From: a virus
Taxonomy: Duplodnaviria; Heunggongvirae; Uroviricota; Caudoviricetes
Length of the DNA stretch: 3,685 nt
Reading direction: 5' to 3' (one strand)
Virus record (IMG/VR): IMGVR_UViG_2667527792_000011
Location: 1-3,685 of that record
Part shown: one piece after another, positions 871 through 2,960 of the stretch
Layout: every line of letters starts with the position of its first letter
Position numbering within the stretch: the stretch's first letter is position 1
Made by a program: the position numbers and the translations under genes
The notes under the pieces: model-generated
Seen by the model: the letters and a program-made list of their open reading frames with translations, nothing else
Told to the model about the DNA's origin: nothing
The model's database searches: none

Positions 871-1583
871 TGAGCGCAAAAAAGAAACCGTTAACACAAG
901 AGCAGCTTGAGGACGCACGTCGCCTTAAAGCTATTTATGAAAAAAAGAAAAATGAACTTGGCTTATCTCAGGAATCTGTCGCAGACAAGATGGGGATGGG
1001 GCAGTCAGGCGTTGGTGCTTTATTTAATGGTATCAATGCATTAAATGCTTATAACGCCGCATTGCTTGCAAAAATTCTCAACGTTAGCGTTGAAGAATTT
1101 AGCCCTTCAATCGCCAGAGAAATCTACGAGATGTATGAAGCGGTTAGTATGCAGCCGTCACTTAGAAGTGAGTATGAGTACCCTGTTTTTTCTCATGTTC
1201 AGGCCGGGATGTTCTCGCCTGAGCTTAGAACCTTTACCAAAAGTGATGCGGAGAAATGGGTAAGCACAACTAAAAAAGCCAGTGGCTCTGCATTCTGGCT
1301 TGAGGTTGAAGGTAATTCCATGACCGCACCAACAGGCTACAAGCCAAGCTTTCCTGACGGGATGTTAATTCTTGTTGACCCTGAGCAGACTGTTGAGCCT
1401 GGTGATTTCTGCATAGCCAGACTTGGTGGTGACGAGTTTACCTTCAAGAAACTGATCAGGGATAGCGGTCAGGTGTTTCTACAGCCACTAAACCCACAAT
1501 ACCCAATGATCCCATGCAATGAGAGTTGTTCCGTTGTGGGGAAAGTTATCGCCAGCCAATGGCCTGAAGAGACGTTTGGGTGA
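870..1583 (+). CDS. cI: CI repressor (lambda-type, LexA/S24-like self-cleaving C-terminal domain)
   Basis: 237-aa ORF almost identical to lambda CI as recalled. It has the HTH segment [21 protein letters not shown], the Ala-Gly autocleavage site in [10 protein letters not shown], the catalytic Ser in EGNSMTAP and Lys in FTFKKLIRD, and the wild-type NAALLAKIL context (not the cI857 change). There are a few substitutions relative to the reference as I recall it, including position 2 of the mature protein (SAKKK where lambda has STKKK). Confidence 0.97.
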
Positions 1584-1605
1584 TGAAACCACTTTTATCT
1601 ACAAT
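1576..1605 (+). promoter_or_regulatory. Candidate weak sigma70 promoter overlapping the cI 3' end and reading into the cargo cassette
   Basis: -35-like TTGGGT (1576-1581), 18-nt spacer, -10 TACAAT (1600-1605). Sequence-only prediction with a weak -35. Confidence 0.25.
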
Positions 1606-1622
1606 TTACAGGGCGGTAAACA

Positions 1623-2180
1623 TTGGCAAAAATAGATGATTATCAGCCAAGCCAAGTAGAAGTTGATAAAGTACTTTATTGTAAAAAAATAGTTAACTTT
1701 TCTGGCGTTAAATGGAAACAGAAACCAAGTCGCTCTGATATGTGGCTACAAGCTCATATCATCCCCTTGGATGAGGATTGTATACCTATACAAGGGCTAA
1801 AGTTTGAACTGAAATGGAAACCAGATCAGGATTCAGAACCTGATGACCCGATTTCTTACCCTAAAATAAATATTATTGCTTTCTATCATAACAAGAGGGT
1901 TTTCGCGGTAGATACCTATCACTTTGACAAACACACGAATAGTTACAAGGTCGATCATCCGAAGTACCAAGATATCATTTACGGTGCTCATTACCATGTA
2001 TACTATGAAGAAGCTGGATACTATAGTGATAGAATAGCGTTTCCAATCGAAGATGACATAAACCCAGATGACCTGGTAGGGTATTGGAATTACTTCTGTA
2101 AACATCTGAACATAACTTACTCTGGGAGAATACCTTTACCGCTTGAAGATGAGTCGGGGCAAATGGGGTTTGGAATATGA
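1623..2180 (+). CDS. Hypothetical protein, 185 aa, unknown function (cargo gene A in the rexA position)
   Basis: ORF in the same frame as cI, opening after a TAA at 1617-1619. The only in-frame starts are TTG at 1623 (GGGCGG 7-12 nt upstream) or ATG at 1740, so the start is uncertain. The C-terminal half is rich in Tyr, His and Asp/Glu (HPKYQDIIYGAHYHVYYEEAGYYSDRIAFPIEDDINPDD). No transmembrane stretch, Walker motif or resemblance to RexA that I can see. Confidence 0.6.
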   Translation: MAKIDDYQPSQVEVDKVLYCKKIVNFSGVKWKQKPSRSDMWLQAHIIPLDEDCIPIQGLKFELKWKPDQDSEPDDPISYPKINIIAFYHNKRVFAVDTYHFDKHTNSYKVDHPKYQDIIYGAHYHVYYEEAGYYSDRIAFPIEDDINPDDLVGYWNYFCKHLNITYSGRIPLPLEDESGQMGFGI

Positions 2181-2929
2181 TGTGCTCAACAGTGATCTCA
2201 CAACTAGGTTTCGAATGCCATCCAATAGGCAAGACCTTGAGAATTATCAGTCCATTCACTTACTGTGATGATGGAGAGCATGTCGGTGCCTTTATCCGTG
2301 AAGTCAATGGTAGGTATTTAGTTAGTGACAGATGCGATGCCTTAATGAATATGGAGGCAAGAGGGATCTCGCTTACCAAAAAACGACTTGATGAGATACG
2401 ACAATTACTGCTTAAAGAAGGCGCAGAACTCAATGCTCGAGGAGAAATCATTGCTTGGGCAACAGAAAAGGATGTCGGTGCGATTACATCGAACATAATT
2501 AGAGCTGGTATACTCGCATCAACTTTGTCGTTAGACTGGTATCAGCCAGTTCAAGCTGAAAAGTTTGAAAGTATGGTTATTGATTATCTATATCACACAG
2601 AGCTTAGAGAGGCACTTTCTCTTCGTGAAAACGTATATGGCTTGAGTGGACATCAAATTACCGTCCCTGTAACAATAAAAACCGACATACCTAAATACGT
2701 TTTTACATCAAGCGTGAAACACGGAGGAAGCTGGAATAGTGCTTACTCATTGCTTGGGAAACTAATTGATCTTAAAGCTTCAAGTGAGGAGTATAACAAC
2801 AGATTTGTTGTTATAGACAGCGAAGCAATTGGTGATCAAATGCAACAACTCTCCTTACTCTTCCATGAATCAAGCCAAGTTCTACCATTCTCCAAAAGAG
2901 AGACTTGGATTAAGAGACTTGCAGCATAA
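2177..2929 (+). CDS. Hypothetical protein, 250 aa, unknown function (cargo gene B in the rexB position)
   Basis: ATG at 2177 overlaps the gene A stop in an ATGA motif (translational coupling), with GGGG 10-13 nt upstream. The ORF ends at TAA 2927-2929, immediately before a terminator hairpin. No hydrophobic segment long enough for a membrane helix, unlike RexB. Confidence 0.7.
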   Translation: MMCSTVISQLGFECHPIGKTLRIISPFTYCDDGEHVGAFIREVNGRYLVSDRCDALMNMEARGISLTKKRLDEIRQLLLKEGAELNARGEIIAWATEKDVGAITSNIIRAGILASTLSLDWYQPVQAEKFESMVIDYLYHTELREALSLRENVYGLSGHQITVPVTIKTDIPKYVFTSSVKHGGSWNSAYSLLGKLIDLKASSEEYNNRFVVIDSEAIGDQMQQLSLLFHESSQVLPFSKRETWIKRLAA

Positions 2930-2932
2930 TAC

Positions 2933-2960
2933 AACCCGGCCTCAGCGCCGGGTTTTCTTT
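2933..2960 (+). terminator. Intrinsic terminator of the immunity operon (timm-like)
   Basis: GC-rich stem cccggc (2935-2940) pairing with gccggg (2947-2952) around a 6-nt loop, followed by TTTTCTTT. Lambda-like sequence resumes from this point. Confidence 0.75.

Follow-up and report, generated by a model that had tools for sequence, protein, structure and literature searches.

In lambdoid phages, the segment between the repressor gene cI and the antiterminator gene N is a hotspot of mosaicism (Degnan et al. 2007, Mol Microbiol 64:232, as quoted in Owen et al. 2021, PMC8585504), and the swapping of genes in this slot has been known in print since 2007. Here we analyze one such swap in a stretch of 3685 bases of phage DNA (IMG/VR record IMGVR_UViG_2667527792_000011, positions 1 to 3,685; hereafter the window), which makes up the immunity region of a lambdoid prophage (imm-lambda, with a backbone of mEp332 type) and lies in the orientation opposite to the standard lambda map. 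Between the end of cI and the intrinsic terminator tIMM the window carries a cassette of two genes, here called A and B, in place of lambda rexA and rexB. It shares with the published variable cI-N segment the slot, the flanks (cI end and tIMM), the orientation and the phage-to-phage replacement by unrelated cargo, and the immunity-region records of mEp332, HK244, HK542, and CL707, which belong to the Degnan phage set, match it directly. What differs from the Degnan account is the mapping of the crossovers to the base and the tally of cargoes, 21 or more, both new here.

This slot serves as a general site of exchange: its junctions are fixed, and at least 21 different cargoes were found in it. 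The wider architecture, in which a fixed slot 3' of a prophage repressor holds swapped cargo that is presumably expressed in lysogens, is established and needs no new explanation, and the remaining interest lies in the uncharacterised A-B pair. Taken as a whole, our account of an mEp332-type imm-lambda region whose rex slot holds the unrelated A-B pair, read as a cI-A-B operon with an anti-phage role, appears probable.

Fixed junctions and the latest exchange

The A-B cargo occupies 1623-2929 on the plus strand, between the cI stop codon at 1581-1583 (in ttt ggg tga, 1575-1583) and the tIMM hairpin at 2933-2954. The stop codon of gene B lies at 2927-2929, and the terminator stem pairs 2933-2940 with 2947-2954 (8 bp) around a loop of 6 nucleotides (nt), followed by a T-rich tail, with a folding energy of -17 kcal/mol (z = -2.9 versus shuffles). 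The initial annotation of the window had placed the cI stop, the gene B stop and the start of the hairpin at these same bases, all correct on recheck, and had claimed that likeness to lambda ends at the cI stop and returns at the hairpin. Alignment with blastn agrees to within one base: the match to lambda spans 216-1584 at 96.8% identity, ending one base beyond the stop codon, leaves 1585-2932 unaligned and is back at 2933, the first base of the stem. The match to mEp332, a wild imm-lambda phage, covers 216-1579 at 99.4% and 2935-3685 at 99.9%. Divergence is abrupt rather than gradual on both sides, as in same-register bins of 30 nt the identity to lambda falls from 0.90 to 0.27 across 1584 and rises from 0.37 to 1.00 across 2933 (90-97% before 1584 and about 27% over 1585-2932), which rules out a gradual drift away from the lambda sequence.

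The alternatives that occupy the same position were surveyed in 80 IMG/VR loci with a cI at least 98% identical, in each of which the cI end and tIMM were located; both flanks were present in 70. Between them lie at least 21 unrelated cassette types of 743 to 2087 nt, so that within one immunity type the flanks are conserved and the cargo is unrelated, with the junctions of these 70 loci falling within about 4 nt. On the left, all types have ...gaagagacgtttgg in common and diverge inside the last Gly codon or the stop codon, a junction of the form ...gacgtttgg followed by N-stop; the 22 cassette representatives part within a few bases after gacgtttgg. On the right, all types follow NNcccggcc-loop-gccgggttttctttgcc, with divergence inside the two outermost stem bases. 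The terminator is kept in all cassette types except the deleted loci L036 and L041, which form an extra type with a truncated NYN gene; here a deletion took tIMM and the right-flank match starts about 60 nt past the hairpin. The reading of the locus as a modular exchange, as first annotated, is supported by the sharp junctions, by an insert that is not rex and by the variety of unrelated cassettes between the same two junctions.

Slot occupants are predominantly known or candidate defence genes, some of them validated. Besides the annotated rexAB of lambda they include BstA (L059, L068, and L077; PADLOC 1e-105), the pair PDC-M63 A and B (L064; 1.8e-41 and 7.5e-45) and, in L045, a DUF3024 gene (PDC-S43) followed by an unannotated gene of 153 amino acids (aa) and a Ser/Thr kinase like mad6/PD-T4-6 (kinase 7e-50). 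Others encode an NYN-domain protein (L029; Pfam 6.8e-09), a KilA-N protein (L017; Pfam 1.7e-27), ParA-like ATPases (L019 and L065; AAA_31 2.8e-13 and 1.3e-16), a P63C protein (L066; Pfam 7.5e-23), a ClpP-like SDH protease (L055; Pfam 1.6e-10), a DUF2335 protein (L079; Pfam 1.4e-17) or, without annotation, the 349-aa protein of mEp332 and others (L002 and others).

Some cassettes are themselves composite. The first gene is common to L045, L052, L033, and L042 (DUF3024/PDC-S43, 113 aa, start GGAGGATAGATGGCG), the L042 copy being diverged, and the genes downstream of it differ, which indicates a second level of mosaicism within the slot. Over the first 31 nt compared, the PDC-M63 locus has lambda's first ~30 nt past the cI stop (TCGGCAAGGTGTTCTGGTCGGCGCATAGCTG) and diverges thereafter; part of the lambda cI-rexA spacer has thus been kept with another cargo.

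The bases exchanged most recently can be read from the mismatches to two relatives. Against mEp332, the window has no mismatches over 216-1477 and 10 over 1478-1583; against phage ev017, it has 24 over 1205-1436 and none from 1437 into the cassette. On the right side, identity to ev017 holds through 2968, broken only by a mismatch at 2849, and is lost from 2969; identity to mEp332 spans 2935-3680. The window is a three-part mosaic of an mEp332-like backbone and an ev017-like insert. The switch points place the crossovers at 1437-1477 in cI and 2935-2968 in tIMM, and show, on the pattern of mismatches, that the latest exchange took place by homologous recombination in conserved flanks. The stop codon and the stem base mark the end of homology between cargoes, and the crossovers fall in the conserved flanks outside it, as homologous recombination would lead one to expect. 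On the left, the crossover is situated within cI, 105-145 nt from its end, and altered no cI residue, the cI protein being 100% identical in loci that carry the mEp332 cassette. The earlier view that only the payload was swapped therefore stands for the modular exchange, but the latest event also brought in the last ~105-145 nt of cI.

The same cassette occurs in phages of other immunity types. It is 99.7% identical to that of the heteroimmune phages ev017, ev207, PhiR57_1, and PhiR63_2 and of an Stx1a phage, and it was found with identical ends in seven phage records. Similarity to ev017 starts at 1173, in the hinge of cI at about residue 102, so the two repressors have the C-terminal domain in common, whereas their N-terminal, DNA-binding domains differ. 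This shared C-terminal segment of cI is the left homology that allows cassette transfer between immunity types. On the right, a lambda-type tIMM hairpin (AACCCGGCC-loop-GCCGGGTTTTT) stands 3' of gene B in Klebsiella, Salmonella, and Yersinia prophages (L089, 5759-5800; L093, 3253-3295; L096, 2469-2507) despite repressors unrelated to lambda cI, indicating that the right-hand joint is shared well beyond the imm-lambda phages.

The A-B pair and its candidate function

Gene B matches Pfam DUF1828 (PF08861) over residues 26-110 (33.5 bits, cutoff 22), and its homologues are annotated with PF08861. In the structural model, this N-terminal domain is predicted to have a chaperone/YbjN-like fold resembling type III secretion system (T3SS) chaperones, and the C-terminal domain is predicted to be a restriction-endonuclease-like alpha/beta core. 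Invariant residues of the C-terminal domain are H159, K173, D198, R209, and D214. Gene A has conserved residues D97, D102, H104, and N106 and a G-x-H-Y-H-V-Y-Y-E motif. Against Pfam DUF6978 (PF22398) it scores 22 bits, below the cutoff of 29.6, with 22.9 bits for its distant relative P0077 and 19.5 bits for P0082, a consistent signal that is likewise sub-threshold. An exhaustive profile search with the A alignment found just 20 cluster representatives at E <= 1e-3 among 1.84 billion. Neither protein matched a family in NCBIfam, and the A and B profiles had no match below E = 0.2 among PDB chain sequences.

An anti-phage role for the pair has, in our judgement, roughly an even chance. It is suggested by the validated and candidate defence genes among the other slot occupants, by a resemblance, in the same gene order, to the PADLOC candidate PDC-M24, in which gene B aligns over its full length (5.8e-10), by the sensor-plus-nuclease-like architecture of B, by the narrow, patchy distribution and by a low guanine plus cytosine content (0.39 in the cassette versus 0.455 for cI). 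The A-B pair would then be a prophage-encoded system of the exclusion or abortive-infection type, in which gene B might join a chaperone/YbjN-like sensor or partner-binding domain to a nuclease-fold domain, and gene A might provide a small enzyme-like partner with a conserved His/Asp/Glu cluster.

Several observations weigh against an anti-phage role. No known fold and no structural or functional analogue was found for gene A, and its match to PDC-M24 is weak (4.8e-4), covering positions 79-134 of a 148-position profile. Foldseek matches of gene B to the PDB are weak as well (best E 0.017). In the C-terminal domain of B the canonical D...(D/E)xK motif is not conserved and beta2/beta3 hold no invariant acidic residue, which makes nuclease activity doubtful, and it is possible that the domain has a non-canonical active site. 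The PDC-x systems, PDC-M24 included, are unpublished and unvalidated candidates (PMC11811056), and no publication that identifies DUF1828, DUF6978, or PDC-M24 with defence was found; DefensePredictor implicates DUF1829, not DUF1828.

The main alternative is that A-B is not anti-phage at all and would instead modulate the lysis-lysogeny switch or the induction of the phage that carries it, or act as a toxin-antitoxin-like addiction or host-fitness module. A precedent is RexA, which reportedly biases the switch of lambda by a route separate from exclusion (bioRxiv 10.1101/2021.04.19.439022; PMC11077077); the weak start of gene A and its tight coupling to B would also suit a toxin and antidote, and the nuclease motif of B is non-canonical. 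Against this, most other slot occupants are defence genes, known or candidate, the pair resembles a defence candidate in PADLOC, and neither Pfam nor NCBIfam revealed a DNA-binding or regulator domain in either protein; we regard the alternative as somewhat unlikely. In its fullest form, the anti-phage proposal is of a hitherto unvalidated two-gene system, obligately linked to the repressor and confined to temperate phages of Enterobacterales and Aeromonas, with A a putative new-fold enzyme (His/Asp/Glu cluster) kept at low dosage by its non-ATG start, B a chaperone-like sensor with a non-canonical nuclease fold, and the whole moved between heteroimmune phages by way of the cI C-terminal domain and tIMM. 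We put this forward tentatively, as a proposal falling just short of an even chance.

Linkage to the repressor and expression in lysogens

Homologues of the A-B pair (B 47-84% identical) occur across Enterobacterales and in Aeromonas. In every context examined, in seven of seven genera (Escherichia, Salmonella, Klebsiella, Yersinia, Photorhabdus, Aeromonas, and Thorsellia), the pair lies directly 3' of a prophage repressor, co-directional with it and opposite a cro-like gene, although the repressors upstream are of at least four different types. Conserved, too, are the ATGA overlap of the two genes and an ATG start for gene B. For gene A the start codon is TTG or GTG in six genera and ATG in the seventh, Thorsellia (window 1623-1625; L085, L089, L093, L096, L098, and L099). 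This conserved non-ATG start suggests that A is made in smaller amounts than B, as might be expected of a partner that is toxic or must be tightly titrated.

Downstream of cI, a terminator scan of the window found no terminator before 2933. The 39-nt spacer between cI and gene A has no terminator-like site and folds like shuffled sequence (z = 0.44), and no Rfam family reached the gathering score in the window. We infer that the cargo would be expressed together with cI in lysogens, based on the shared strand, the short unstructured spacer, the common terminator and the synteny with a repressor in all seven genera. On this view pRM (and pRE) would drive a cI-A-B operon that ends at tIMM, so that A and B would be made in lysogens alongside the repressor; translation of gene A would be held low by its TTG or GTG start, and that of gene B would be coupled to it through the ATGA overlap.

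Read-through from cI is not universal among slot cargoes, since some of them start with a terminator-like hairpin right after cI. The ParA-like and P63C cargoes of L019, L066, and L065 have a GC-rich hairpin and a T run in the first ~45 nt past the cI stop, likely terminators that would uncouple these cargoes from pRM. Together with several other points, such cassettes speak for A-B being an autonomous moron with its own promoter, uncoupled from pRM and cI, for which the position behind the repressor would be merely a convenient recombination site. The spacer between repressor and gene A is 130-150 nt in Salmonella, Klebsiella, and Photorhabdus, leaving room for a promoter, and 650 nt in Thorsellia. 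Lambda has an internal promoter, pLIT, within this operon, and the window has weak promoter-like matches at 1605-1633 and 1663-1690. Such matches, however, occur at chance frequency (6 found versus 6.6 expected), the spacer here is only 39 nt long with neither terminator nor stable structure, and the pair is co-directional with the repressor throughout. An independently transcribed pair is accordingly unlikely, and expression as part of the cI operon is the reading we retain.

Distribution, window map, and comparison with known systems

Of 5426 complete E. coli genomes, 239 (~4%) carry the cassette along with the cI C-terminal end and tIMM, Nissle 1917, ATCC 25922, S88, and UM146 among them; public phage and E. 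coli records already list its products as hypothetical or DUF1828 proteins. In none of the 5426 genomes does the cassette occur together with the rest of this imm-lambda region, a combination seen only in the IMG/VR loci L006, L015, and L016. Coordinates of the features in the window are collected in Table 1. The stop codon of N (3683-3685) forms the very end of the window.

Table 1. Features of the 3685-base window, with coordinates, strand, and supporting evidence.
Feature	Position	Strand	Evidence or remark
E. coli lpxC last 29 nt and lpxC-secM intergenic DNA	1..216	+	outside cassette
cII, 3'-truncated, in-frame fusion to lpxC-downstream sequence	217..450	-	lambda/mEp332 identity from 216; intact cII at same place in L006
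cro	569..769	-	open reading frame aligned with annotated cro of lambda and mEp332
oR operators with pR and pRM	780..869	.	pR-like site 822-794 on minus strand; matches mEp332 oR/pR/pRM position
cI repressor, imm-lambda type	870..1583	+	Pfam HTH_3 4.6e-29, Peptidase_S24 2.6e-11; DNA identity 96.8% to lambda, 99.4% to mEp332
Left crossover interval of latest exchange, within cI	1437..1477	.	mismatch pattern versus mEp332 and ev017
Left homology boundary common to all cassette types (last Gly codon and stop of cI)	1580..1584	.	junction alignment
cI-gene A spacer, 39 nt, without terminator	1584..1622	+	terminator scan, folding
Gene A, 185 aa, TTG start	1623..2180	+	open reading frame
Gene B, 250 aa, ATGA overlap with gene A	2177..2929	+	DUF1828 N-domain and predicted restriction-endonuclease-like C-domain
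tIMM intrinsic terminator, right homology boundary	2933..2962	+	8-bp stem, 6-nt loop, T-rich tail; annotated Timm in mEp332
Right crossover interval of latest exchange, within tIMM	2935..2968	.	identity pattern versus ev017 and mEp332
oL operators and pL	3110..3180	+	TTGACA-17-GATACT at 3152-3180; matches mEp332 oL/pL position
N antiterminator gene	3362..3685	+	99.4-99.9% identical to N of lambda and mEp332

At the other end, window positions 1-216 find a 100% match in 5425 of the 5426 complete E. coli genomes, at annotated lpxC (ending ...KAPSAVLA-stop) and the lpxC-secM intergenic region. This DNA is joined abruptly to the middle of cII at 216/217, with ~1 nt of microhomology, so that cII is truncated and its open reading frame runs into foreign sequence. 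Neither the GTDB representative genomes nor any of the 5426 complete E. coli genomes contain the 32-mer spanning the junction, and no record of the fused cII protein was found. This joint may reflect a genuine rearrangement, deliberate engineering or a chimeric contig, and is without bearing on the junctions of the cassette. That this one suspicious joint should extend to the cassette junctions, making them an artefact of assembly or construction, is hardly conceivable and is ruled out by their recurrence: the same cI-cassette-tIMM order is found at 99.9-100% identity in three independent IMG/VR loci (those sharing the imm-lambda combination), and the cassette has identical ends in the seven phage records and 239 E. 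coli genomes.

The window thus provides a base-level example of a swap, with crossovers in the C-terminal coding region of cI and in the terminator, and it opens onto a catalogue of at least 21 cargoes at identical junctions. As several of these are validated defence genes, the unnamed cargoes are good candidates for testing. Among them, A-B keeps its repressor-adjacent position across seven genera. Should the pair prove to exclude phages, the small defence families specific to prophages would gain a further member, in which one of the two partners has an unknown fold.

Lambda rexA-rexB occupies the identical position, 3' of cI on the same strand and ending at tIMM, and likewise consists of two genes, but has no sequence or fold kinship with A-B. 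The initial annotation had read the payload as swapped, and gene sizes and order, blastp and Pfam all favor replacement over a diverged rexAB. A highly diverged rexA-rexB, which the shared position, strand and gene count might suggest, is extremely improbable: when A and B are compared with RexA and RexB by blastp the best E is 1, and no Rex family in Pfam matches at E <= 1, which rules it out, the sizes are reversed (185 and 250 aa for A and B versus 279 and 144 aa for RexA and RexB), DNA identity falls to the random level within 30 nt, and B is modelled as a soluble alpha/beta protein of two domains whereas the RexB sequence is very hydrophobic. RexB is an integral membrane protein; A and B are both predicted to be soluble.

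Proteins that combine a sensor with a PD-(D/E)xK nuclease, such as Can2/Card1, NucS/EndoMS, and SfsA, differ from gene B in that its N-terminal domain is predicted to be YbjN/T3SS-chaperone-like rather than CARF and in that B lacks a conserved D...(D/E)xK motif, and they have no sequence-level kinship with it. BstA of prophage BTP1 (PMC8585504) is similar in being a defence gene directly 3' of a prophage repressor, with a promoter that is presumed to be shared, and a BstA homologue sits in this very slot in the three loci listed above. BstA, however, is a single protein with a KilA-N-type domain and has the DNA element aba for self-immunity, whereas A-B comprises two genes with other predicted folds and no self-immunity element was identified for it. 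In PDC-M24, a DUF6978-like A precedes a DUF1828-containing B; gene A of the window matches only the C-terminal third of the corresponding profile and stays below the Pfam cutoff for DUF6978, while the two-gene order is the same and the sizes of the genes are similar.

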